Assembly (NCBI GenBank): GCA_965287045.1
Contig: OZ336892.1
Location: 24,490,001-24,554,000 of the forward strand
Length of the DNA: 64,000 nucleotides
Direction of reading: 5' to 3'
From: Carcharhinus amblyrhynchos
Lineage: Eukaryota
Shown here: in pieces, positions 949 to 63,946 of the stretch
Position numbering within the stretch: the stretch's first letter is position 1
Layout of the letters: each line of letters opens with the position of its first letter
The notes under the pieces: generated by a model
The model's database searches: none
What the model was told of the DNA's origin: nothing
The model's input: the letters and a program-made list of their open reading frames with translations, nothing else
Position numbers and translations under genes: made by a program

Positions 949-43558
<42,610 letters not shown>

Positions 43559-45779: not shown

Positions 45780-46090
45780 AAGATGGGCCACGCTCGCCCT
45801 CCATTCACTTCAACCCACCCATCCCGCGGACCCAACTCACAGAATAAACGGCGATCGGCCCACTCAAACCCACCGGTGCGGTGAGAAGCCAAGCAGCTGT
45901 TTATTCCCTCATCCGCCACTAGGCCTCAGGCTCCACTCACTCCGCCCGCCCGCGAGCGAGGCTGCAACGCACGGCACCCGGATGCCCAGGGGCGGGACTT
46001 CCGGCGACACAAGCGCACCTTTCCATTGGCCCACTGTTCCTGATTGACAGCCGTTCCATCCAATCAGAATGCGGCAGCCTCGACCCCACC
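45780..46090. promoter_or_regulatory. CpG-rich PRPF8 promoter and non-coding exon 1, possibly bidirectional
   Basis: Only non-repeat CpG-dense patch in the window. GC box GGGGCGGGA 45989-45997, ETS/GABP motif ACTTCCGG 45997-46004, CCAAT boxes at 46025-46029 (ATTGG) and 46060-46064, and minus-strand GTGAGT donors at 45840 and 45940. Confidence 0.8.
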
Positions 46091-46307
46091 AAGTCACACC
46101 AGTGCTGAGGGAAAACACATCACATTTCTCCAAAAAAACAAGTATTTTTTACAAGTGAAGTTTGCAATAGATCTGCCAGCGTCTGAAATATTTAAAAAAA
46201 AACAAGCCACTGATTCACAGTTAGACATTCTTTGCCAACATTTGGTGATAAGCTATTCAGCTAAATTTCGTGCATCTTTGTGTCTGTCGAAGGAAATTGG
46301 CATTTTC

Positions 46308-47645: not shown

Positions 47646-48774
47646 AATTTTTAAAAATCAAAACTACATTTCCACAATGAAGTAATAAGAATGGCAGAAG
47701 CGTAAAAGTAGATAGTTGGAAATATAGCAAACTTTACACAGGTGGAGAACGAGATGCCTTTTGTATTTGGTATTTCATTAACTTGCTGGAGAAATGTAGA
47801 GGGTCATCTGACTTGGAAGAAGTTGATGGCTGGAATGGGTGCTAAAATTGAAAACAAAAATCCATTTGCCAACGTAGATACATATAAATGTTCAAAAATA
47901 TATAATGTAAGTAAAAAATGTGATGAATGAGTGATGTAATATCTTTATCGAAACTTATAGCTCTCAGTTCCATTATTTTCATCTTTCGTTTTAGTAACAA
48001 AGCATAATGCAGACTTGAACCTATTGAATCAAGGAATTACCTTAAGATGATTTATTGTCATCATGTACATATCTACAAACGTATTATTAATGTTGCCTGA
48101 AACCACAGCCAAGCCTAAACTAAACTGTTCAGTTTGCCAACTGTTATCTGATAACGGGAGTTATATTGTTAGAAGAAACAAATATCTAGGTTTATTAAAT
48201 ATTCAATTCAAGTTTATTTGAACTTCCAGGAAAATGCAATCGATTAAGTGGGTAGTCCTGTGTGGTATCGCTTTAACATTAAAATTATGGTACTTTGATC
48301 CGGTGCAAATCCAGAAAGAGTCTTGCTTAGAAGAACCTGATGATACTTATGGAAAATCTGGGGACTTGCAGCACATTTGTTAGGTTTAACTGCTCATCTG
48401 GTTCAGTCTCTCCTCTCACACAGAGCAAAATTCCCTTCAGCATGCATCATTTCTAATCTCCTTTAAAAACAGCGACTGTTGCAAGGCTTCAGGTTAAAGG
48501 GCTCATTGCAATGAACCACTTTGGGCACTAAGTGTCTGAATTAAGATTCTTTTTGAAGGGGTCACTCAGACAGATTTACACAGTGCTTCCAACAACAAAC
48601 AAAATGAGTTACAAATACCCTCCCGAGAGGAGGGCATTTTTTTTCCAGCATGTATCATCTCATAGCAACAAAGGAAATTGATCACAGTTTACTGAGAATC
48701 CTGTTGAATATCTTATGACTACCTAAATAACAGGTGTTATTGTGAAGATCCTGCAAGACCTCAGCCACTGCTGA

Positions 48775-49062
48775 ATGGGGAATAGTTGCTCGTGTACCCA
48801 CACTACTGTAACTCAAATTCACTTCTTGCAAGGTGATGGCTCTCCACCCTCGCAAAGAGAATATAAAGACCAGATACAGGTGGAAGTGAAAGCAGGGGGC
48901 AAACATGAAGTGGCAGAAGTAAAAGAACAATATGAAAAATGGAATATGCTCGCTGGAGAAGTCAAAGCACTACTCGACATTCGTCCAAGAGAAGGCAACG
49001 TGGAGGAGCTAATGTATCAACTGAATGAAACCTTTAAAGCTGACAGCCTGGTCATGACATCG
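48775..49062 (+). CDS. Calpain-like gene coding exon 1 (96-aa N-terminal extension)
   Basis: Acceptor aacag| at 48733, true ATG at 48775, MGNSCSC...LVMTS, phase-0 donor TCG|gtaatc compatible with the next exon. The link to the calpain exons is inferred. Confidence 0.72.
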
Positions 49063-52000
49063 GTAATCAGATTTATGTGTTATATATATTGCATACTGCC
49101 AAGCACTTTGATAAGCATGGGTCTGCTGCTTTTGTCAATTTACTTATAATTTGTGCCCGAAATATTTTACTGAAATCTTCATTAGTAGCTCATTATTTTA
49201 ATTGCATTGTACAATTTAGATGAAAAAAATCTTAAATGTATGTTTTTAAAAAAATTGAAGTTGGAGACTGGAATCTAAAATTCCTTGCCATTATAGTGTT
49301 AAGTGGGCTGCACCTTCCAGATTCCTTAATATTTACAAATCTGTAATGAGATTGGACTGCAGTATTTGCTTTGGCCCCATGTTGTGTTAGGAGCATCTAT
49401 TTAATACTCAGAACATCACATTCTTCGTAGTATCTTTAGAAAGTGAAATGTAATTGTACATTAATGTTCAGATTCAAGGGAATTCTGATGGAGATGGTGC
49501 TATTTTTACAATGTGCTATCTTTGTCATGTATCTGAATTTCAGAATCTTGTGAAAGAATACTTTTATGCCTTTGATTATAATATATAATTAAACAAGTGT
49601 TTATCTAACATTTCAGGCCCCACTTTATCTGTGCACTGATATTTGTGGGAAGTAGTACTATAGTACTCAAAGTATTAAAATAAGGCTGTTGCTTAGTAAC
49701 TAGTTCGATATTTTTCATTATGTCAGTTTGTTTAGCTTGTAAAAATGCTACATTTTAATCCTTTCTGTCAGACCAATAGGGATGTTGATTGTTGCTTGGC
49801 AAATTAAGGGACCAAATGTGAATGACAATTTTGTATACAATTAAAAGGAGTCAAAACTGTTTTAACAAAAAAGATGATGTGATTAATGGGCATTATAGAC
49901 TCTGTCCAATTAAGTATTTTATGTAATTAGGTGGGGAGAACTGTCTAAACATATCTTTCATCAGTCATACTGCAATTTACAAATAATTGTCATTTCGTGC
50001 ATGTTTGACTTTTAACATGCTGGATATCAGCATTAGTATTCATTTTGGATCAATTCTGCTGCTGAATTCCTTTTTAATTAGGCTTTTCTTCCTGCACTAC
50101 AAAGTTCAAGACAAAAGTTTGACCATCTAATTCTATATTTTACTCTAAAACTGCCACCAACAGTAGTAGATGTCACACTGCAGACAACATAATCCCACTA
50201 AATATAGAAACATACGAAATAGGTGCAGGAGTAAGCCATTCGGCCCTTCAAGCCTGGACCACCATTCAATATGGTCATGGCTGATCATGCACTTTGCGTA
50301 TCCCACTCCTGCTTCTCCATACTTCTTGATCCCTTTAGCCGCAAGGGCCATGTCTGGTGTCTTCTCGAACATATCTAATGCATAATAACTATGTAGTTAT
50401 ACTCTCCATCTGTGGGAATGGTAGCATGTGCTCAAAATCTAGAAAGCAGGACTTGCACTGGCAAGTTCCTGCTTTTTCCTCTGGGATTTTGCAGATTGGA
50501 GCTTGAATGGGATGATTGGCAGGTATGGTCTTACACTGAATATTCAAGCACAGATGCTGCTTTTTGAGTTAAGAGAGAGCAGCGTCTCTCTCTTCTTGCC
50601 TTCGAAGTTGGAGACTGGAATCAGCCAGAAGATAAATTTCTTTCTTGGAAATTCTGCTGTCTGAGAGCTGCTGTTTTGAAAATTGCTGTCTGATCTCTAT
50701 TAAAAAGCTGAAAATCCAGCATCATGTGAGCATGCTTATTTTTGTGCTAACTAATTCTTAAGAAGAGTGTATGTCCTGTAACCAAGACATCGTCCAGGCA
50801 CACTACTACCTGAGGTAACCCTTGGAGTATGTAAATCATGCCGTTAATATTCAAATCCATCCCACCGGCAAAACAGCGCCAGTAACTCTGCACACGGCAT
50901 GAAACTGATCACAAACCCGATTTCTGGCCTTGTATGCAATCCTATCGGTTCGCTGTGCTGATCGACTGGCACAGCAAGCTGGTAAGATTGTAGCCAAAAT
51001 TGGCGTGAGTGGAGCCAATTTGTTTTAAACCTCCCCCTGCACCTTCCCTATTGGGCAAGCCTCCAATCGCCTAATAGGGGAGCTTGTGTTCAATGTGGCT
51101 CATGGGGAGATCTATTGATGATCCTCCGTGGTCCTCTTAACAAACTCCCAACATCTTATCAACCCCAGCTCTCCACATATCCTGCCACTGGCTCGAGCAG
51201 AAAATCCAACCCCATCTTTCAGGTTAATAGCCTTTCAATTGCACAGCCTTTCCTGCTTTTTGTTCTTATTTCAGATTTTCAGCAGCCACAATATTTCACT
51301 TTTGGTATAGTTAGAGGAGGAATGCTGTTTGAGTACGTGATCTGTTAGATCATTAATATTACCAGCAGTCATTCCTAGCTTGTAATATTTACATGATACA
51401 TATTATTTTTAATACACAGAAAAAGATATTATTCCATCGTAACCGTCAGACCTATTTTATTTTTATTCAGAACTATCAGAAAATTATAGAAGAGCTTGAG
51501 CTGACTGGTAAACTCTGGGAAGACCCCGAATTTCTCCCTGAACCTTCATCATTAACTTATGAGGACATAGCCCCAGAAGGAATCAAATGGATGCGCACCT
51601 TGGTAACTGCAATGATTACATACCGATCAGCCTTAGATATAGCTTGCTCCACTTGAAACAAACAACTATCCTAAACTATTCTGGAAGCTTAAGTATCTAT
51701 CGAGGATAAAATGATTGGGAATATATGCCACAGCATGAAAGGTAGATATTGTGAAAAAATGTAAGGATAGAAATTTGTTTTGGATAAACGTGCAGGTTAG
51801 GTGGATTGGCCATGCTAAATTGCCCCTTACTGTTGGGGGACTAGCTAGAGTAAATGCATCGGGTTGTGGAGGTGGGGCTTGGGTGGGATTGTGGTTGCTG
51901 CAGATCGATGGGTCGAATGGCCTCCTTCTGCACTGTTGGGATTCTATGATTCTATAGATTCTATGATAATAGAGCAAAACAAGCAGTTATTATACAACAG

Positions 52001-55000
52001 CTCCCACATCCACTATATATATAGTTCCTTTAATAGTGGAAAATATCAGGAGGTGAGGACTAAAATCAGGAGACGCATTGCAGATTAAAAATTATTGCCC
52101 ATGACTAATTTTGACTCTGTACTCTCTTACAAATGATTTAAGGCATTATTTCCCATGGACAATTTCAATGAGAAACAAGCAGCTCCAGCACAGCAGGCAG
52201 CACTTGCTGTAGTTTTACTTTAGTTTCTTAAAGCTGTCAGGGATAAGTGACAGATTGTAACATAATCCAATAAGAGGAAAACCGAAAATGCTGGAACTTC
52301 ACATTGAGTCAGCCAATCTGCAAAAGAGAAAAGATAGGTTAGCATTTCAGGTGTGTTAATGAGAGTATATTTCAAGAAACATTTCCTTAAATCAAGATTC
52401 ATTGATGTATAAAGCTATCTGCCTAAAATCTTAAGGCTACCATCCCTTCTCCACAGATGATGGCTGATCTATGACCATTTCCAGCATTTTCTCTTCAAAT
52501 TCACATATATTTACTTAATAGCTGTGCTTTCAATGAATTTCCTTAAAATCTGAGCTGATCTGTGTGTTTTTTTTTGTAAGCTATGTGTCATGAGGAATTT
52601 TGTATTGAAGATGGTGTGCAAATTGAATAAACAATTAAAGAGGAAAGAATTTACAGGGCTTATGGGAAAAGGGCAAGGGAATGGCATCAAATAAGTAGTT
52701 CCACCAAAGAACTGGAACAGCTGTGATGGGCCGAATGGCGTCTTTTGTGCAGTTTTGCTACATGATTCCATGAAATGCAAGTTGTTGATTAGAGTTGAAA
52801 TGGTGAACAGGAGAAGAATACTCCTCTTTGTAAATTATTTATTTCTTTGTTCTTAGGATCTGCATGAAAATGCTTTCTTTGTAACAGATGGGGTTAGCAA
52901 AAGTGACATTATCCAGGGAGAGTTGGGAGACTGCTGGTTCTGGGCCTCCGTGGCTACAATAGCCAATTCCAGAAGACTGATTGAGTGGGTTATTCCAACT
53001 GGTGAGAATTTATATTTTTAAAATTGAGATTTCAGGCTACCATACTAAAGTTTTCTGTTCACAATGTTTAAAACAAAATATAGAGAAGCTTAAGCTTTGC
53101 AGATCTGTAGAGACATAATGAGTAACTTGACCTGATAAATTATTGCAAAGGGAGCCTTGTCGTATGATTCTGCTTGCCATGATGTTAGAATTTTCAATGC
53201 TTATGTAACAAAATGCTGTAATATTTTCCCACTTAAGTCTCACCCAGGGTACACTGCACTTATATTCAGTGTCACTGACCTCTGATAATGGAACAAATCA
53301 AATTTAATTTTCAATGCGTGGGATCTAGGATTCTTACTAACATTTTGGAGATCACATCCCATGATTCCATCCACATTAACCATGCATATCTATAAACTTT
53401 GGGGACTTTTAAAAACAGAGTCGCCCTTTGGGATGCAGCTAGAGGCTTTTAGATAGTCTTTGGAATTGAATAAACTTCACATTCAAGTCAATCTTGACAT
53501 TTAGCTTATGATGTCTCCTGGGCTAGGTTTCAGCCTTGTTTTTCAACTCAAAAAACTATTACATTTTCCAATTGCGGTTCAAATATGAATCTTATAACAC
53601 TCCTTTATCTCTGCAGTATTTTTAATTAAAATTTTAATTCATTTTAAAGCCTGTTTTAAAATAGCACATATCGGAAATTAATAGTGAAACACCAAGGGTT
53701 GAATGTTTTGGACTCTTTGGAACATCGGGAAGGCAGGGGGGCTGGCAGAATTGAAGCAGAAGATGTTGGAAGAAGAGACTGATGTTTTCTTGCCAATGTG
53801 ATATTTTATTGGAAAAGAAGAAAGTTTGAATAGTCACCGTGCGGCCAATTGAACCACTTAAGCGCAAACTGGCAGCCTTCCCAGAGGCTCTGGAGGGGTA
53901 GGGTGGGGGCCTGTCTTTTTGGGCAATCTAGGGCTTACAAAAGGGCTCCCAGGGCAATGACTAACCTGACAGCAACAGCATTGCCAATACTTCACAACCT
54001 ATTCCCCCATCCCCAATCACATGGGCCTGACTGCCTGGTTCAGCTTCCTCCCGCACAGCTTCAACACTCTTTAAGAGTGCCTGACAATTGAGGCATCCTT
54101 TTCCTGTATTGTTGCCTCCATCTGATTGGTCCAACAGCTCCCGAGGTGGGTTGCCATCCTTAATTAGTTGGTGGCCCAGCCAACGTCTGTTCATTGGCTG
54201 TCTCTGGCAAAATGTCAGCATGGGTCCTGCCGCCTGCTGAAGTGTGATTGTTTCTCACTTTCAGCTTTGGCAATGGGACTTGCTGGCAATCAGCAATCTG
54301 ATGATATTGCCTTGAAAAGATGGTGGTGGATGTTCTTGAATTGCTGTTGTGTTAATGTTGTTAATGGGGAATCCCAGTGTTTGATTCAGCAACAATGAAA
54401 TAATGGCAAAGTTGCTTAGAAAGGAACTAGACATTGATGGTGTTCCCTTTACATGCATATCTTTGTCTTCCTCTGGGGCAGGTGACATGGAGCTAGGAAA
54501 TGCTGTTGAACTAAACTTGCAATGTTGCTGCAAAGCATTTTGTAATGAATGCAAAACAGTGGTAGAGAAAGTTTTGGTAGGAGCACCAATCAAGAATACT
54601 GTATTCACCTGGACTTTGTTAGTTGCTGCTTTTGGTTTATACCATTGGTAGGATTTTGCGGTCCTACCTGCTGCAAGACCGAAAATATTTATCTGAGGTT
54701 AACAGATCTTTCAATAGTTCATCAAATTGTCTGTCCTGCCCCCAGTGATTTCTGTGGCGGGGTGGAGGGGGGCTGGTTTGTAATGGAGATGTGAGTGATC
54801 CACCTGGCTATGATGGTGCATGATTTCAAAATTGATCGCCCACTGTTCCACATGGATTCCCAGCGTTCTAATGTTAGACTTGTACTTAATCTATCCCATT
54901 AGCAATGAAGTGGAACCACACTATGCAATGGAGGGTGGCAAATTAAGGATGTCAAAATTCAGGAAATGCATCCAACACAGCTAGCAGAGGGAAGAAAATG

Positions 55001-58000
55001 AATAGTTGTAATAAGAGATGTCCTCAGAATTGGTGACAGGTCAGATTAAGTGATAGGTCTAGAGAAATGTGGATGATATTTACTTTTACCTCTAATCAGT
55101 TCATTTCTAATTTTTCCTTCAAGTGTTCACCTGCAGTTCATTTATTGACGACACAATTCGTCATTATTGCAATTTTGGTTCTGTTCTAATGAGGACCTTT
55201 AGATCTCTTTCTCTCTCTCTTTCCAGTCAATTATCTCCTGTTCCTTCCTTTTCTGAAGAGATTGATTCATGATGGGGTTGTTCCACAAGCATGCTTCAGT
55301 AGCTTGATTAGCGGAACATCATTCATGTGTTGTTCTTGATAGTTGTTCTTCGTAGCGAGGGGGATTGAATATAAAAGTAGGGAGGTCTTGCTGCGGCTAT
55401 ATAGGGCATTGGTGAGGCCGCAGCTGGAGTACTGTGTGCAGTTTTGGGCGCCGTACTTACGCAAGGATATTTTGGCCTTGGAGGGAGTGCAGAGGAGGTT
55501 TACTAGGCTGATGCCGGAGTTGAGGGGGTTGAGCTATGAGGAGAGGCTGAATAAACTAGGCTTGTACTCGTTAGAGTTTAGAAGAATGAGGGGAGATCTC
55601 ATTGAGATGTATAAGATGATGAATGGGATGGATAGGATAGAGGTGGAGAGACTCTTCCCGCTCAGAAAGGACAGTAGGACTAGGGGGCACAGCCTCAAGA
55701 TAAACGGGGGGCGGTTTAGAACGGAGTTGAGGAGGAACTTCTTCACTCAAAGAGTGGTGAATCTCTGGAATTCTCTGCCCGTTGAAGTGGTGAAGGCTAC
55801 CTCGCTAAATATTTTTAAGACGCGGGTTGATGGGTTTTTGATAAGAGAGGGGATTAAGGGTTATGGGGAGAGGGCGGGAATGTGGAACTGAGCCATGACA
55901 GATCAGCCATGATCTTATTGAATGGCGGGGCAGGCTCGAAGGGCTAGATGGCCTATTCCTGCTCCTATTTCTTATGTTCTTATGTTCTCATGTGAGTATT
56001 GAAAAAACATCTACTGGACCTTCACTCAATGCTCACACTTAAATTTCCAACAAGGATCACTAGGGCAATTAAGATTGGGAAGGTTGGCTAATCTTTACCC
56101 CTCCCTAAGCCAGAAATTGTAACGGCACCATCCACATGAAATTAATTAACTTGAGACCAAGCGACTGGGAGAACCATGTAGATAGAACAGTTGTCTTAAC
56201 CTTTACCTCTTTGAACCTAGATATAGCTATGCAATGGGTACTTATCAATAAATTAACAAGCGGAAACCAGCATGCATTCCAATATTTATATGTAGACAGC
56301 TTTCAGTAAGTATAAAAATTAGATAAATGTCTTTCCGAAAAGGCCGCAGCAAAGCTGGTTTGAGATGTTTATCAAGTACAGAATCACCCCCAGAGTTCAA
56401 GGAGAAAACCAAACAAGGAAGAGTTCTTGATGCTAGAAAAGGTAGTTACTAAAGCGATGCTTTAGTGCATTCAGGAATCACTGGTACCAAAATGAAAAGT
56501 GCTGGTTTGGATTGGTGCCAGCAATGTAACAAAATATCATCATCCCATTTCACTGAGTTTATACCGAATAAAATATTCATACTGTTGAATTCATGGCAAC
56601 AGCAGATAACATGATTACCTGTGAATTATATCATGCTGTTTAAATAGGCCAAATGAAATAAGAAATATGCTGATTAGGAATTCTGTCAACAAGCGTTTCA
56701 AATCACAACTTATGTGTAAATCCCTCACTCGCGGATGTGCTGTAGACTAACGTTCAATTTGTCTTTTGAACACAAATATGAGTGCATGCAATTTATTAAT
56801 CATTAACACCATGATAACCATATGGAACCACTGTAGGAGGCCATTCTGCCCATCACACCTATGTCAGCTTGCAGAAAAAGCAATCTGCTCAGTCCCTTTC
56901 CTCTGCTCTTTCCCCAAAACTTCTAAAACATTCATATTTGAAATATTTATCTGCTTCCCTTGTAAAATCTTGCATGGATTTTGCCTCTATTGCTGTTTCT
57001 GATGGGGCATTCTGTACCCCCAAATCCCTCTTTCTAAAATATAACCATCAATCAGTTCTTCCATTCAGCCTTCACTCGTTTGGCAATCTTAATTTGAAGT
57101 GCCGACTCACTGACAAGTGGGAATGCTTTGTTTCAAATTTACTTCATCAGCCACTTTCTAATTTTGATCATTATAATCAAATCTTATCTAACTCTGTTCT
57201 GGAGAAAAATGCTTCAGCTTCTCTAGTCTCTTTCTATAAATAATTCTCCCACAGGATATCTTCTGTACCATTTCCAATGTCTCGACATCCTTCCCAAAAC
57301 AAGGTACCTAAAACTAAACACGATAATCCTACTAAGTACAAGCTTAGTATTCTCTCTTTTTATTCTTTTTAACCCTTTGTCCTTGTTTAAGATTACTCTA
57401 TGGCTTACCATAATTCCCTTTACAACTTATATTCAATATATCATTTGAAATGAGCTGCTTTGAAGATACAGATTGTCTGAGAATAAATATATCTTGTATT
57501 TGTGGCATGTATATGGTGGCACAGTGGTTAGCATTGCTTCCTCACAGCGCCAGGGAGTTGAGTTCAATTCCAGACTTTGGTAGCTGTCTGTGTGGAGTGT
57601 GTAAATTCTCCTCATGTCTGCGTGGGGTTCCTCCAGATGGTCCAGTTTCCTCCCAAAGCCTAAAGATGTGCAGGTTGGGTTGATTGGCCATGTTAAATTG
57701 TCCCAGAGTATGAAGGGGGTTAGTAGGGTAAATACATGGGTTACGAGGATAGGGCCTGTGTGGGATTGTTATCAGTGCGGACTCAATGGGCCGAATGGCC
57801 TCTGCACTATAGAGATTCTATGATCCGAGTATTCTTCTGAGATGCTAGGCTTCATTTCTGGAGATGCAGGCAGAGAGTGGGTGGTTGATTTTTCTGGAGC
57901 ATTACAACTCTGATAACAGGACAATATGAGGGTCCTGACCCTGTTATGATCAGGTGAGAAGGAGTGAACTGGCTCCTTCTATTCAACCTCCTTGGTTTGT

Positions 58001-61000
58001 CACAATAAAGGTTTAGGTTTCTTTTTCATGAAGATATGCCTTTTCCAAATCAAAATGTATTTATATATTTATGCAGTAAGCAATGAGGAGCAAATCCAAC
58101 AAGGCTTGTTTGAGTCAAAGAAAGAACAAGTTTAATAATCACTAAACCGTTATTTTGGACCAAATCTTACATCTCATTAAAGAGATTTTGTGCACATGAG
58201 AATCACATGAACCTTTGGCGTGTTCCCTCTGATTCGCCCATTCCGCACCAACTTAATCCCTGCAATCAATAGAAGCTCTATATAAATGGCTCCCCACCAC
58301 TTGTTCCGGAACAACTGCAGGGGATGGCAGCCAAGAAGTCTGCACTTTACTTTTAGGATGGAGCCCTCACCAGGATGCTGGATGGATTGGAGCAAAGGCG
58401 GCCACTCGAGCTGGTCTCTGAGGTGGAAGAGTGTGTCTAAACTGCTGTGAAGTGAGGGCAGCAGATAGATGTGAAAATCCCAAGACACACTGTGATTTCC
58501 CCAAGTCTCAAGTGAGTAATCAATGATCCCTCCATCTCCCCTGTAATGCACTGATGCCATCTCCCTTCTTTTGCAGACTTACCAGCTGAACAGTCTAGCT
58601 CATCCTCACTCCCCCGGACCCACTAGACAAGCAGCTATGAGGGGGACTTCTCCTGTCCCACCATTGAAAATGCGTCACCACCATCACCCACACCTCGTAC
58701 CAGCGCAGATACTTGCACTTCTATGGGATCACTAAGTAAACAAGCTTCTGGGCCACACACTGGTGATGGCCTCACAGTTGAAGATCCACAGCAGTTGGAG
58801 GCAGGGATGTCCCAGGAAATTGGCACACAGAAGTGTGTCAGTGCTCAGGACTCTGCTGAGCCTCTGGCTAATGACGTGTCCCTGGGCCCTGTTGCCCCAC
58901 AGCTGCTGGAGTGCAAAGGCATCAGGAAGGGATGACAGCATCCCTCCTCTGACTGCAAGGCCAACTGGAGGAGTCCCATTGCCTTCTGTCAGGCGAGTTG
59001 GTGCCAGCACTGCATCACACCAAGACCAACACTGTCAGGGTGGCGTCTGTAGTGGAGACCTTGGCATAGCATGAGCACTCGATGAGCAGGAGACGTCCAC
59101 ATCACGACTCAGCTCGTGACCCTGTCTGAGGGCATGAGCTCCATGATGCAGTGCTTTGACTGCATGGTGCAGGCACTGGTGGGAATCGACAAGTGTCAGT
59201 GCCCGAAGACGGTGGAGTTCTAGCTCTCACTCCAGCTGCCCTCTTCTATTCCATGGAGGAGCACAGGGAGCCGCCCCAGGACCCCAAACAGAAAAGGATT
59301 CAAGAAGGCAGCTCACCACCACCTTCTCTCTAGGGATGGGCAATAAATGCTGGCTAGCCAGTGATGCCCCTGTGCCATGAATGAACAAAAATAAAGGATT
59401 GGCAGGAATACCGCCCAGGGCACTCCTGCCAGGGGACCCTAGGCATCTCCAGCCCATCTGACATTCTCCCTTCCCTGTGAGCAACACATTTCCAGCCCCT
59501 GAAACTGAGGACAGCAAATATCCATGCTGCCCAAAAGCAGGCCAGCTCCTGGCTCACCCCCCATGGGTCGCCCACCAAGGTCATCTCAGGCAGTCCTTGC
59601 CATGTGTGGAAGTCAGCAGGCCGCCTCAACCTTAACTGTGGATCCTGAGGATACACCTAGATGTAGCGTGAGGATGAGGAAAATTAAGAAACTGTAGGTA
59701 CTAAGTAGGCACAGGTAAATATGGGCACTAGTGTAGATGGGTCACCATTGTATTGAATGCTTGTCATTCAAATTCACTTTGTTCACCCACATAGCTTCCA
59801 CCCCTGTCTGTTCTTGTCACCAAGTTTGGGGAAGCACTGCGCTCACCTGCTGCCTTGTCCATGTGGAGTGTGAGAATGGCAGTGCATTGTCCCTCCCACA
59901 CCGACAGGAAGGTTGCAGTAGTGGGGCACTGCTGCTGGCAGCCCCTCCCCATCCCCGAGTCCATCCCTCAATCCCCATCTGTAAAAGGGTGAGCCCCCTT
60001 TACTCCCCCATCAAAGCTCAACCCCTTTTATATCTGGCACTATTCCCTAATGATCACATGGCCTTAGTCCTGTTATGCAATTGAAGTACTGTTGCAGAGG
60101 TAAAAGGAACTATTAGGAGCAATTAGGAGTAAATTGCTAAAGGAAATTTTTCAGATAGTAAGGGGAGTGTCTAACAAATATATCCTAATGCTCACAGGCC
60201 AGTATATTACTGGGAAAACTCCTTACTATGGAATCTTTCGCTTCCGATTCTGGCAATTTGGAAAATGGGTGGAAATTCTGGTGGATGATTACTTGCCAAC
60301 AAGAGATGGACAACTTATTTATGCCAGATCAGAAGCTGACAATGAATTCTGGCCGTCGCTTTTTGAAAAGGCCTTTGCAAAGTAAGTGTAATCAATTCCT
60401 TGTCAGATTTATGTTTCACTGTTACATAACATGCCTGTACCAAACACACTGTGGTGTGGCGATATGAACAGCTGATATTCTGCTGAACAGGATCCTCTAT
60501 TTATACAAATACCCGGTGAAAATGTTCAACAATTTCATTGTTTGATTAATATTGTGTTTGATATATCATATATCCATATCTATTCTCCTGTCATCTAGTT
60601 GGATTCCTATATCCATGCTTACAGTAGAAATTTCCCATGTAAATGCACCATTCTGCAATTAAGAGTTCCTATCACTAAGGCAGCACTGAGATGAGGGGTG
60701 AGGTTCTATGTATCATAAAAGGAAGTCTGTTTACAGCAACATCATAGAATTGAAGAATGGTTACAGCACAGAAGGAGGCCATTCAGCCGCTCATGGCTAT
60801 GCTAGCTAATAGCACGATGAACTCAGCTAGTTGCAGTCCTCTGTCTTTTCTCTGAAATCTTGCAATTTCTTTCTCTCCAGGATCAATTTCCTTTTGAAAG
60901 CCATTACTGGATGTGCCTTCATCACACTCTAAGTCCCAACCACTCCCTGTGTAAAATGATTTTTCCTCATTCCATCTTTGATTCTTTTGCCATTCACCTT

Positions 61001-63946
61001 AATGAATCAATGTCCTCTGGTTCTCATACCCACATCTCAAACCTGTTGCCAATGTGAAGAGATTTTCCCTGTCTACTCTGTCTATATCCCTCATGATTTT
61101 GAAAATTTCTATAAAATCTCCCCCCAGCTTCTGTTTTCTCTGGAGACCAATTCAATTTCTCCAATCTATCTTTAAAATTTAAACTGCCGCTTACTTGGCA
61201 TGTGACCAAGATATCTGGGTGATAACAATTTGGAAACAAGGGCCCATGAGTTAGTTATCAGGATAAGTAGACTGTGAGTGCAGCTCTGCTCTCAAACAAG
61301 GTTATAGATTTTAGTTTTAGAACAAGCTAAGTGCAGGACACATCTCTTTCAAGCAGGATTCAGTTGAAATTCTGTGCATTGGCTACAAAGAATTAAAACC
61401 TCTTGTTAATTGTAAGACTCCTGGCAATGAGTTGGACTTCTAGGAAAAGCCAAGCAGGGAGAGAGAGTTTTAGATGCAAAACTCCAAAGTTAAGGAATAT
61501 TAAAATTAGAAAGGTTTTGACCTGAAATGGCTCTGCTCAAGAAGCTAATGATGCCACTGTGAGCTGGAAGTCTCCAAATATGGGACCTTGGAGGAGATTA
61601 AATGGGGCAACCTTTCTAGTAAAAAGCCCAAGAAATCTCAGTTTTCACTTGAAACTTTGAAACAGTACTGAGGCCAGGTTTAATCTTCCAATTTCTGATA
61701 AGTATCTGACTTGTGTTTTTGAGGTGTAAGTCAAATAAGTGCAGAAGGCAAGTTGAGCTGGGGGAATTCTCCAGTCGTATCAGATGGCCGGTCGAAATCT
61801 TGTTGGCCTACAGAAAAGAGTGTTGGCCAAAAATTTTACAATTAGTGGGTTTGATGACCCATTTACTGGCCCCCTGCCATTAACCTGTCCCTTCAGCAGG
61901 AAATACACGAGGTGGGCTTTGATGCTGGCAATGACCAACCTGGACCTGGTGTGCTGGACCCTGAGGGTTCAGGGAGCAACACCAGCTCGCCAGCCAGCAA
62001 ATGCAAGAGGCATTCATCCCTCCACCACTGAAATAACAACACAATGCAGACATGAGGGTGACCCAACTCAAACTCCCTCAACCCCCTTTCACCCTCAGAA
62101 CCCCACTCAGTCTCTTCCCCCGCAGACCCTCATTCAGGGCCCTTTCAGGCCATGAACCATGGCAGTGTTAATAATGCACTGCATTATTGGTAATACACCT
62201 TGACCTAGCACATTGGGCCCCAAGGTATGTCCAATGCCAGGCCAGGCTGCAAAGGAAGGGTCCCTCAAGCATACTAGAGCTGGTTGGCTGGGGGCAAGGT
62301 GTTGATTTCATCCCTCTCCCCTGAGATTGGGGGGCATGGTTGGATGGCCCTTTCTAGCCCTGGCAGACCTGAAGATCGCCCCCAGCATGATGATTTCAGG
62401 CAGCTCTGTGATTAATAACTACATTCCTGCCTGTCAACTGTGAAACTTTGAAGTGGTCTAGTCAATTTAATGTCCATGCCCCCTCAACAGCTGGAAGACT
62501 CTTAAATTACAGCAGACTTCATTCTGCAGCAGAGATTTCTCTTTCTCTCTGTCAAAAGCTGAGCTGAGACCCCTTTGAAATCTTCTGACAGAGAGATGTC
62601 AATTTCACTGTGGATGGGTGGCGGGGGGGGGGGTTCCTTCTCCGCAGCTGTTCACTCAACTCCAATGTATTCCCACTGCTTTGATTTGAAATCTCTGAGC
62701 CTTCCTAGAAAGCTGAGACCTTTGAAAACTTTTGATCTCTTTCAATTTCATAGCACATACTATGAAATAGGCTTTAATTCATAGCTTAATGGATTTCTAC
62801 TCAGCCTTCAGTCATCTTATTTACCTTTCCCTTCACGCTTGAATGCATCTCAAGCACCCCCATTTTTCCTAACCACAATGTTTACAAGACAAACCTGATT
62901 GATAGCTGTGGTTTCTTCAAAGGGAATAAATGGTTTCACTTCCTATTTTGAAGACAAATATCTGTGTTAACAACATTGTCATTTGTATTCACATTCTTTG
63001 ATTTTTTTGTGTTGTAAAATTATTGAATTTTGTGTTGTAAAATTATTTGAATTTTCAAAAGAAAAAGAATATAAATAAAAATGGTGCAAGTCTTTGCTTT
63101 AATTTAGATTAAATAATATAAAATGAAAGCAGAAAATGGTAGAAGAACACTGAATAAGTCTGTTCGCATCCGTGGAGAAAAAAACACAGTTAATGTTTTG
63201 AGTTCATGTGACTTCTTTCAAGCTGAAGAATTCGGATCTCATGGATGGAATCTCTACAGTGCAGAAGGAGGCAATTCAGACCATTCAGCCTGCACCGACA
63301 ACAATCCCACACATGCCCTAATCCTGTAACGCCACACATTTACCCTGCTACTCCCCGTCATCAGTAAGGGTCAATTTAGCATAGCCAATCAACCTAACTC
63401 AGACATCTTTGGATGTGGGAGGAAAGCAGGGCAGCCAGGGGAAACCCATACAGATATAGGGAGAATGTGCAAGCTCCATATAGACATCACCTAAGGCTGG
63501 AATCAAACCGGGTCCCTGGCGCTGTGAGGCAGCCACCATGCCACTCTGTTTCTCTCTCCACAGATGCTCCTGGACCCCTTGAGAGTTCTTCCAACATTTT
63601 CTGTCTTTTAATTTCAGATTTCCAGCATCCACAGTATGTTGCTTTTAACACGTTATTTTATTTTGCCACTCCATTGTCTTCTCAACCATCAAATCAGTAT
63701 TCAATGATTGTCCTGTGCAGTTATTTGCCTACTTCTTTTGCATCAGCATTGGATTTTACCTGCAGGTTGCACGGGTCATATAAGGCGATTGAAGGAGGGT
63801 GGACACTGGATGCTCTGACAGACCTCACTGGCGGTGTTGGTGAGATCTACAGGTTTTCAGAATTTGCAGATAGGTATGAGGAACTGTACAACCATCTTGC
63901 TGCTGCTTCTCGGAAGAATGCTTTGATGGCCTGTGGAACAGGAAAG
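48775..63946 (+). CDS. Calpain-family (peptidase C2, CysPc) cysteine protease, 5' part; continues beyond the window
   Basis: Five phase-compatible exons give WEDPEF, WMR, DIIQGELGDCWF (catalytic Cys), GIFRFRFWQFGKWVEILVDDYLP, NEFWPSLFEKAFAK, LHGSYKAIEGG and DLTGG. Confidence 0.93.
50205..50380 (-). mobile_element. CR1 3' end fragment
   Basis: tagaaacatacgaaataggtgcaggagtaagccattcggcccttcaagcc...catggctgatc. Confidence 0.8.
51471..51602 (+). CDS. Calpain-like gene coding exon 2
   Basis: ttcag|NYQKIIEELELTGKLWEDPEFLPEPSSLTYEDIAPEGIKWMRTL|gtaac. Confidence 0.92.
51788..51968 (+). mobile_element. HE1-type SINE, 3' half
   Basis: gtgcaggttaggtggattggccatgctaaattgcccctt...(gattctat)n. Confidence 0.85.
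52857..53001 (+). CDS. Calpain-like gene coding exon 3 (catalytic Cys codon 52932-52934)
   Basis: cttag|DLHENAFFVTDGVSKSDIIQGELGDCWFWASVATIANSRRLIEWVIPT G|gtgag (absent from the ORF track). Confidence 0.94.
55347..55992 (+). mobile_element. Young 5'-truncated CR1 copy (third copy of the subfamily)
   Basis: Near-identical to about 5770-6410; 182-aa ORF; (TTCTTATG)n tail. Confidence 0.96.
57515..57825 (+). mobile_element. HE1-type SINE, near full length
   Basis: ggtggcacagtggttagcattgc...cacagcgccaggga...gattctatgat. Confidence 0.85.
58150..60060 (+). mobile_element. Decayed GC-rich DNA transposon, probably PIF/Harbinger (Myb/SANT-like ORF remnant)
   Basis: TATA-like ctatataaa at about 58277, then ATG at 58323 reading MAAKKSALYF*DGALTRMLDGLEQRR, resembling Harbinger Myb-like proteins; abrupt rise in GC content. 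Confidence 0.5.
60198..60381 (+). CDS. Calpain-like gene coding exon 4
   Basis: cacag|(G)QYITGKTPYYGIFRFRFWQFGKWVEILVDDYLPTRDGQLIYARSEADNEFWPSLFEKAFA AA|gtaagt. Confidence 0.95.
60745..61185 (-). mobile_element. Old CR1 3' fragment
   Basis: acagcacagaaggaggccattcagcc tail; ORF 61024-61239 (DRLEKLN...) resembles the CR1 ORF2 end. Confidence 0.7.
63004..63055. repeat. Two-copy tandem duplication of about 23 nt
   Basis: ttttgtgttgtaaaattattgaa followed by ttttgtgttgtaaaattatttgaa. Confidence 0.8.
63240..63543 (-). mobile_element. HE1-type SINE inserted into a palindromic repeat
   Basis: gaatctctacagtgcagaaggagg...ggtccctggcgctgtgaggcagc. Confidence 0.85.
63766..63946 (+). CDS. Calpain-like gene coding exon 5
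   Basis: tgcag|(K)LHGSYKAIEGGWTLDALTDLTGGVGEIYRFSEFADRYEELYNHLAAASRKNALMACGTGK|gttaga. Confidence 0.92.

Follow-up and report, generated by a model that had tools for sequence, protein, structure and literature searches.

A calpain gene at the right-hand end of the window

A stretch of 64,000 nucleotides from the shark Carcharhinus amblyrhynchos (assembly GCA_965287045.1, contig OZ336892.1, positions 24,490,001 to 24,554,000 of the forward strand; hereafter the window, its first letter being position 1) carries the first five coding exons of a calpain gene. An earlier note, made from the letters alone, had proposed that the protein begins with a dual acylation signal, MGNSCSC, on a novel extension of 96 residues, spliced in phase 0 from 49062 to 51471 onto the exons of the CysPc domain. 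The parts of the gene are the following.

48775..49062, plus strand: first coding exon, 96 codons with a phase-0 donor; no Pfam family above cut-off and no PDB match below E 0.5
49063..51470, plus strand: intron 1, GT-AG, phase 0
51471..51602, plus strand: coding exon 2, start of CysPc; weak Peptidase_C2 match, E 0.071
52857..53001, plus strand: coding exon 3, with the catalytic Cys166 (codon 52932-52934) and Gly152 and Asp157 of calcium site 1; Peptidase_C2, E 1.8e-12
60198..60381, plus strand: coding exon 4, with Glu238 of calcium site 1; Peptidase_C2, E 2.6e-22
63766..63946, plus strand: coding exon 5, the final one inside the window; Peptidase_C2, E 9.4e-10

Translation of 48775-49062 (plus strand) yields 96 residues with the N-terminus MGNSCSCTHTTVTQIH, reading MGNSCSC as had been claimed. 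Once joined, the five exons make up 930 bases, that is 310 codons with no stop, with phases 0, 0, 1, 2 and 0 and GT-AG at all boundaries. At the first junction, the donor past 49062 (TCG in the exon, GTAATC in the intron) and the acceptor ahead of 51471, ATTTTTATTCAG, are both canonical, the intron is in phase 0, and the alignment to orthologues P0006 (the bamboo shark Chiloscyllium) and P0008 (the skate Amblyraja) is colinear across exons 1 and 2, as expected from the splice initially postulated. Because an in-frame TGA (48772-48774, plus strand) abuts the ATG at 48775, and because the two bases ahead of this ATG are GA and not AG, the start Met is not internal; an in-frame coding exon upstream, which would have undermined the proposal, is ruled out by this TGA.

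Over residues 1-310 the joined exons are 83.6% identical to P0006, with 1 gap, and they share 75.9% identity with P0008, while the window protein is 84.2% identical to its Heptranchias counterpart (residues 21-310) and 54-55% identical to those of sturgeons, paddlefish and bichir. Exons 3-5 pass the cut-off of PF00648 (Peptidase_C2), so that a CysPc domain is present in the window copy. Could this copy nevertheless be truncated or decaying, without active protease? The models of Chiloscyllium (P0006) and Hemitrygon (P0127) both stop right past the equivalent of exon 5, running into the intron, only five cartilaginous-fish records figure among the matches listed, and the remainder of the gene lies outside the window. 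Against decay stand the five exons themselves, 930 bases free of stops and frameshifts, bounded by GT-AG and 84% identical to those of two sharks, together with the short terminal branch of the window sequence in the tree described below (0.031) and the complete models, triad included, of Heptranchias, Amblyraja, Narcine, Acipenser and Polyodon. What comes after 63946 may be an intron that is long or poorly assembled. We hold decay to be very unlikely, and an active protease is predicted in this species with considerable confidence.

The N-terminal tag and the extension behind it

A cysteine lying a few residues from a myristoylated Gly2 is the usual setting for palmitoylation. This is the arrangement predicted at the tip of the first exon, the layout of which can be divided as follows.

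48775..48795, plus strand: MGNSCSC, codons 1-7, predicted N-myristoylation site (Gly2, Ser6) with candidate S-palmitoylation at Cys5 and Cys7; all four invariant in 6/6 orthologues with this start
48775..48822, plus strand: conserved tip, codons 1-16, including HTTVTQIH past the acylation motif; 14-16 of 16 residues identical to shark, skate, sturgeon, paddlefish and bichir
48823..48939, plus strand: variable linker, codons 17-55, probably disordered; low identity, predicted local distance difference test (pLDDT) about 24-30 in the skate model
48940..48990, plus strand: moderately conserved segment WNMLAGEVKALLDIRPR, codons 56-72, judged by identity to orthologues; no confident structure

Identity to the window over residues 1-16 amounts to 16 positions in bamboo shark, 14 in skate, 15 and 15 in two sturgeons, 14 in paddlefish and 15 in bichir. 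Over residues 17-55 it is 21/39 in bamboo shark, 10/39 in skate and 3-5/39 in bony fishes, and over residues 56-72 it is 14-15/17 in shark and skate and 5-9/17 in bony fishes. As far as conservation tells, the 96 residues do not make up a new domain; they comprise a conserved tip of 16 residues, then a linker that varies and a short stretch that is again conserved. The best candidates for a known domain (YkuI_C in Pfam, E 0.032, under cut-off) and for a known structure (UvrB in PDB, E 0.5) were both rejected as chance. An AlphaFold2 model of the skate orthologue, built on an alignment of 36 rows that included the midge protein P0093, has a mean pLDDT of 74.9 and a predicted template modelling score of 0.77, with a confident core from about residue 91 and pLDDT below 50 for residues 1-90 and for an acidic loop at 409-416; a folded N-terminal domain was rejected on this ground, the alignment being thin there, so that disorder is not proven. 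The extension has no credible relative in Pfam or PDB, and its tag, as we shall see, is lineage-wide. The charged, helix-like segment that had been read into it is weakly supported, the pLDDT staying below 50 over all of residues 1-90 in the skate model.

Of the at least 12 vertebrate records, six start MG[NS]SCSCxHTTVTQIH, three are fragments short of the N-terminus and three start otherwise. Conservation of the four residues of the signal, which the earlier note had put forward as a check, was found wherever this start is present: Gly2, Cys5, Ser6 and Cys7 are invariant in the six tagged orthologues (shark, skate, two sturgeons, paddlefish, bichir), and Cys5 and Cys7 are there in 7/7 vertebrate sequences with this start, window included. 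The start also matches the myristoylation pattern in the form of PROSITE PS00008 (Met-Gly, a small residue at 6, no exclusion residue at 3 or 7). How often would this occur by chance? On both strands of the window, 1603 ATGs are followed by 10 open codons; 20 fit the pattern, six of these also have a Cys at 3-10, and one has two Cys, which is 48775 itself, since it qualifies. Conservation is a stronger control than such a count. Taken together as sequence evidence, myristoylation of Gly2 is predicted as very likely and palmitoylation of the tag cysteines as likely.

Past the acylation motif, HTTVTQIH (48799-48822, codons 9-16) is invariant from shark to bichir and sturgeon, further than acylation requires; it was not seen in the invertebrate N-termini displayed. 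One may therefore imagine that Gly2 is myristoylated while Cys5 and Cys7 are left without palmitate, residues 5-16 making a protein-binding or self-docking strand, with membrane binding weak or carrier-mediated. This would account for a conservation that extends to residue 16, beyond the needs of an acylation signal, and it would suit the seven of 19 Met-Gly invertebrate members that lack a nearby Cys. However, the tip, with a net charge of 0 over residues 1-19, has no basic cluster to act as a second membrane signal, which makes palmitate the likely one, and it is undocked in the skate model, though a pLDDT below 30 makes that say little. Furthermore, a Cys so near a myristoylated Gly2 is, as said, the established setting of palmitoylation, and such is the case in Plasmodium (Russo, 2009, PMC2746569). 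A tip without palmitate is quite unlikely, and palmitoylation of the tag cysteines is retained in what follows.

A second transcript might also omit the tag, by splicing to an acceptor around codon 19/20 or by starting later. It would yield a soluble protease and leave the tagged form as one of two, or as the minor one. Indeed, the models of Heptranchias and Narcine (isoform X2) enter the common sequence about after Gln19, that of Hemitrygon starts at a Met near codon 38, and Phe-Leu-Gln codons could yield a pyrimidine-rich CAG acceptor in those species. By contrast, Gln19 is encoded by CAA in the window, so that there is no phase-0 CAG acceptor, only a weaker AAG one base on. Moreover, Heptranchias and Narcine have nothing in common in their alternative starts, as expected of prediction artefacts, and the tip is strongly constrained. 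We consider skipping of the tag an improbable account of this gene, and the tagged protein remains the form to be understood.

A non-classical domain plan

Complete orthologues (569-604 residues) consist of PF00648 (Peptidase_C2, or CysPc) and one PF01067 (Calpain_III, or CBSW) only. In these orthologues Pfam finds no EF-hand or penta-EF-hand (PEF) and no C2 domain, the window's own 3' end being beyond view. The Heptranchias and Amblyraja proteins end about 19 residues past CBSW, which leaves no room for a C2 domain of the TRA-3/CAPN5-6 type. Likewise, there is neither tandem CBSW nor MIT in the orthologues, where a single Calpain_III stretch departs from the CAPN10 or PalB plan. The Cys-His-Asn triad is kept in the five complete vertebrate models (Heptranchias, Amblyraja, Narcine, Acipenser, Polyodon) and in Latimeria, the window showing its Cys166. 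Side-chain ligands of both core calcium sites are also kept, Gly/Asp/Glu for site 1, in the window copy and the orthologues, and Glu/Asp/Glu for site 2, in the orthologues, with Thr or Glu instead of an aliphatic residue at the first position of site 1; residues were mapped via a sturgeon classical calpain numbered like m-calpain, with site positions taken from PMC4631099. The best Foldseek matches of the skate model are m-calpain structures (32-35% identity; E 3.9e-47 at 35% identity).

An acidic PDFDGDGxxD loop occupies the CysPc-CBSW linker of orthologues P0007 and P0008 (residues about 400-415, past the window). DxDxDG is a calcium-loop motif, which the PDFDGDG loop resembles. In vertebrates the loop varies, for example to DFDCDG or DFNGDG. 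Judged by its domain plan, the gene belongs to a lineage of its own, with a CysPc-CBSW calpain that is neither classical nor of the TRA or CAPN10 type, and the contrast with the classical vertebrate calpains that the earlier note had drawn was therefore off target.

The lineage and its spread among animals

Relatives were sought with the skate protein (of 8000 candidates, 283 reached E 1e-30) and with an alignment of the vertebrate proteins (2327 of 7999 at 1e-40), the best 120 of each being listed; both searches score only candidates sharing words. A search with the 96-residue extension among longer proteins gave three matches of 25 candidates, in bamboo shark, sevengill shark and thorny skate. 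The vertebrate records, at least 12, come from Chiloscyllium, Heptranchias, Amblyraja, Narcine, Hemitrygon, Acipenser (two), Polyodon, Polypterus, Erpetoichthys, Latimeria and Protopterus, and most are annotated only as 'calpain-A-like'. The bony-fish orthologues P0010, P0011, P0012, P0014 and P0128 have a Cys within their last few residues, off the CaaX position, a possible further site of S-acylation.

After the vertebrates, the best matches among those listed are PEF-less calpains of hemichordates, amphioxus, tunicates, sea star, molluscs, annelids, bryozoans, crustaceans and ticks, with 38-44% identity. The skate protein scores 400-439 bits against the top invertebrate truncated calpains, whereas with human or rat calpains of solved structure it does not exceed 339. 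A tree was made from 51 rows, all of them named records: 13 are from vertebrates, the window included, 23 are PEF-less proteins of invertebrates and 15 are classical-type. The latter comprise 12 PEF-bearing invertebrate proteins (one per genus of many), the midge protein P0093, which lacks PEF, falls among the classical calpains and was counted with them, and the two halves of one sturgeon record. The high-ranking sturgeon match P0272 turned out to be two classical calpains fused in one model and was kept only as outgroup. The 13 vertebrate rows form one group (100/100), and together with the 23 invertebrate rows they are split from the 15 classical-type ones, again at 100/100. Inside the 36 rows branching broadly tracks species, hence a reading as single-copy orthologues, the order among amphioxus, tunicates and vertebrates being weak.

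The lineage also shares characters. A Met-Gly start is found in 19 of the 23 invertebrate members, as against one of 14 classical calpains (Fisher p 1.4e-5, with rows that are not phylogenetically independent). Eighteen of the 23 fit the myristoylation pattern, and 12 combine Met-Gly with a Cys at 3-10, often as MGCGxS, while past Met-Gly the invertebrate N-termini are unlike one another. A PDFDxDG-type loop follows CysPc in 21/23 invertebrate and 9/13 vertebrate members (the other four end before the loop or skip it) and in 0/14 classical calpains. From these counts, the Met-Gly start is to be seen as a trait of the whole lineage across bilaterians, not as a shark novelty. Two details may be added. 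The Dermacentor model has a further Met-Gly-type start at residue 23, and an ostracod classical PEF calpain (Cyprideis torosa, P0111) is also Met-Gly, with a Cys at 7; an acylation tag may have arisen again among classical calpains.

A family of this kind has a name. Hastings (2017, PMC5650170) described a weakly supported bilaterian Truncated family, with CysPc and one C2L/CBSW, in molluscs, a chelicerate, sea urchin and amphioxus. Judging from domain plan and relatives, the shark gene is very probably a vertebrate member of it. The plan of AplTRUNC1 is the same, CysPc and one CBSW only, and the phyla match the invertebrate set found here, down to an Aplysia protein; its record, P0032, is likely AplTRUNC1 itself (XP_005105403.1, accession unconfirmed). 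The vertebrates sampled were human, frog, zebrafish and pufferfish, and the accessible text names no vertebrate Truncated member, mentions neither 'myrist' nor 'palmit' (0 occurrences) and regards it as an open question what truncated calpains do and whether they are active. What is added here is the vertebrate branch and the Met-Gly tag.

Is this vertebrate branch instead a fast-evolving offshoot of a named vertebrate family (CAPN5/6 minus its C2, a single-CBSW relative of CAPN10, or a classical calpain minus its PEF), having gained its tag separately? The long vertebrate stem and the outgroups absent from the tree leave room for it; CAPN10 has been tied weakly to the Truncated family (bootstrap 36; Hastings, 2017, PMC5650170), and CAPN5 is S-acylated at Cys4 (bioRxiv 10.1101/2022.01.25.477766). 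Against it, the gene and the invertebrate set have three characters in common, namely the Met-Gly tag, the PDFDxDG loop and the lack of both PEF and C2. Furthermore, the CAPN5 core scores 229 bits against the skate protein, less than the CAPN1 cores (252-259 bits), and no named vertebrate calpain family appears among the best 120 of the 283 skate-protein matches. An origin of this sort is unlikely, in our view, and membership in the bilaterian lineage is preferred.

Among the matches listed, the best 120 of each search, none is named as belonging to a teleost, gar, bowfin, chimaera, lamprey or tetrapod. This suggests loss without demonstrating it, since only candidates sharing words are scored; a search of 50% representatives is blind to loss in teleosts and tetrapods, as close relatives hide inside clusters. 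An Atlas search with the skate protein gave generic calpain clusters only.

A proposed tethered protease

We put at about 0.7 the probability that the gene codes for an N-myristoylated, probably S-palmitoylated protease, tethered to the membrane on a flexible linker, the shark member of a single-copy bilaterian lineage. Its plan would run from an acylation tag through the linker to the CysPc core and one CBSW, with neither PEF nor C2. In line with established lipidation biology, Met1 would be removed and N-myristoyltransferase would acylate Gly2 co-translationally. Myristate alone would make for weak membrane binding, and a zDHHC enzyme, palmitoylating Cys5, Cys7 or both, would then trap the protein on the membrane, where a linker of 80-90 residues would let the core reach nearby substrates. 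Calcium at the two conserved non-EF-hand sites of CysPc would align the active site. In the absence of PEF no small subunit is expected and the enzyme would be monomeric, the lipid tag taking over the targeting role that falls to PEF and the small subunit in classical calpains or to C2 and S-acylation in CAPN5. Depalmitoylation or cleavage of the linker could release the enzyme. More speculatively, the acidic loop might be a calcium loop and the HTTVTQIH strand might bind a partner.

Several facts weigh against this view, or against parts of it. The Kozak context of the ATG at 48775 is middling (T at -3, G at +4). The exons for the catalytic His and Asn of the window copy, and its CBSW, fall past the end of the window, and tblastn with full-length orthologues found no match in the window beyond skate residue 305. 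The tag is missing in three of the nine orthologue models that reach the N-terminus (Heptranchias, Narcine isoform X2 and Hemitrygon), three further ones being fragments; these tag-less models may come from misprediction at a Phe-Leu-Gln(CAG) pseudo-acceptor or represent a real isoform. With seven of the 19 Met-Gly invertebrate members devoid of a Cys at 3-10, palmitoylation is not family-wide. Finally, the tree is midpoint-rooted, has no rows for CAPN5/6, CAPN7, CAPN10 or SOL, represents vertebrate classical calpains by the two halves of one sturgeon record and has a long vertebrate stem (1.09), so that the 36 rows make up one side of a split without being established as a clade.

A bolder picture can be drawn, which we offer tentatively and at slightly less than even odds. 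Jawed vertebrates would have inherited an additional, unnamed calpain family, sole descendant of a bilaterian N-myristoylated calpain, kept by sharks, rays, bichirs, sturgeons, coelacanth and lungfish and lost independently in neopterygians and tetrapods. The protein would be an active, dually acylated monomer, with the PDFDGDG loop as an extra calcium sensor replacing the penta-EF-hand, HTTVTQIH binding a conserved partner, and an alternative start toggling between tethered and soluble forms.

Comparison with known calpains

Crustacean calpain-M is not known to carry a PEF domain; no usable paper on it was found. The closest precedent for the acylation mode is the Plasmodium falciparum calpain, shown by experiment to carry myristate on Gly2 and palmitate on Cys3 and Cys22 (Russo, 2009, PMC2746569), Drosophila Sol being given in the accessible text as the only other calpain with a recognised myristoylation signal. 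As predicted here for the shark protein, it combines Gly2 myristoylation and Cys acylation with a long extension ahead of CysPc and domain III. Its extension is, however, far longer and carries a nuclear/nucleolar signal, whereas no such basic signal is present in the shark exon, and the two tags are probably of independent origin. In trypanosomes, CAP5.5, a calpain-type protein which the earlier note had invoked as a parallel, does have a motif for dual acylation at its N-terminus (PMC13317235). Most kinetoplastid homologues lack catalytic residues according to the same source, in contrast to the orthologues of the shark gene, which keep the triad, and CAP5.5 is associated with the microtubule corset. 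CAPN5, of the TRA-3 type, is also without PEF and is S-acylated, at Cys4 among other sites, for membrane association (bioRxiv 10.1101/2022.01.25.477766), but it has a C-terminal C2, absent from the orthologues here, the abstract of that preprint makes no mention of myristoylation, and the skate core is no closer to it than to CAPN1. With classical calpains (CAPN1, 2, 3, 8, 9, 11-14, 17) the gene shares the CysPc-CBSW fold, the triad and both core calcium sites; it differs by having no PEF, a tag in place of the short anchor helix, the acidic PDFDGDG loop and a position on the other side of the tree.

As for other sources, in their accessible parts, Macqueen and Wilcox (2014, PMC4043111) restrict their scope to classical calpains, Zhao (2012, PMC3563603) presents the CysPc-C2L plan as ancient and paraphyletic, a 2026 teleost survey (PMC13664112) covers named calpain families only, and the strings 'myrist', 'palmit' and 'acyl' are all absent from a 2026 review (PMC13413365). 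A literature search turned up no study of this vertebrate gene, nor any of acylation in the Truncated family, most subscription journals, home of much calpain work, being outside its coverage. What is new is the vertebrate branch and the family-wide tag; the Truncated family and the acylation mode were already known, separately. If all this is true, an entire family is missing from the vertebrate calpain catalogue, which was compiled from human, frog and teleost genomes. An animal calpain with its catalytic residues intact would then owe its targeting to N-myristoylation, which the accessible literature that was found has so far demonstrated in protist calpains, and Truncated calpains of molluscs, arthropods and echinoderms would be predicted to be membrane-tethered, which gives a handle on their function. 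The reach of this is limited by the fact that no human or zebrafish copy was found among the matches listed and that neither substrate nor phenotype is in sight.

Surroundings of the gene

PRPF8 lies head to head with the calpain gene, on the minus strand from 43558 (ATG) down to about 15500, three of its exons matching PRO8NT. A distance of 5.2 kb separates their start codons and contains a single CpG-rich stretch, which from its composition is a candidate promoter shared by PRPF8 and the calpain. Human PRPF8 is not known to have a calpain neighbour. Two features ahead of the calpain start are the following.

45800..46100, no strand: CpG-rich stretch with GC box and CCAAT boxes; GC 0.62, CpG observed/expected 0.87 as against at most 0.59 in the other 18 bins
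48649..48774, plus strand: probable 5' untranslated part of the first exon, behind a strong-looking acceptor, TTTTTTTTCCAG, ending at 48648

Two upstream open reading frames precede the calpain ATG, at 48650-48718 (22 codons) and 48715-48726 (3 codons), and they may dampen its translation. Pieces of retroelements of the long interspersed element (LINE) type are found at 4793-6313, 17078-17731 and 55343-55891, the last one inside intron 3 of the calpain gene, where Pfam gives no match. One LINE-type piece has an open frame of 506 codons resembling reverse transcriptase, and the LINE pieces are presumably CR1-like.
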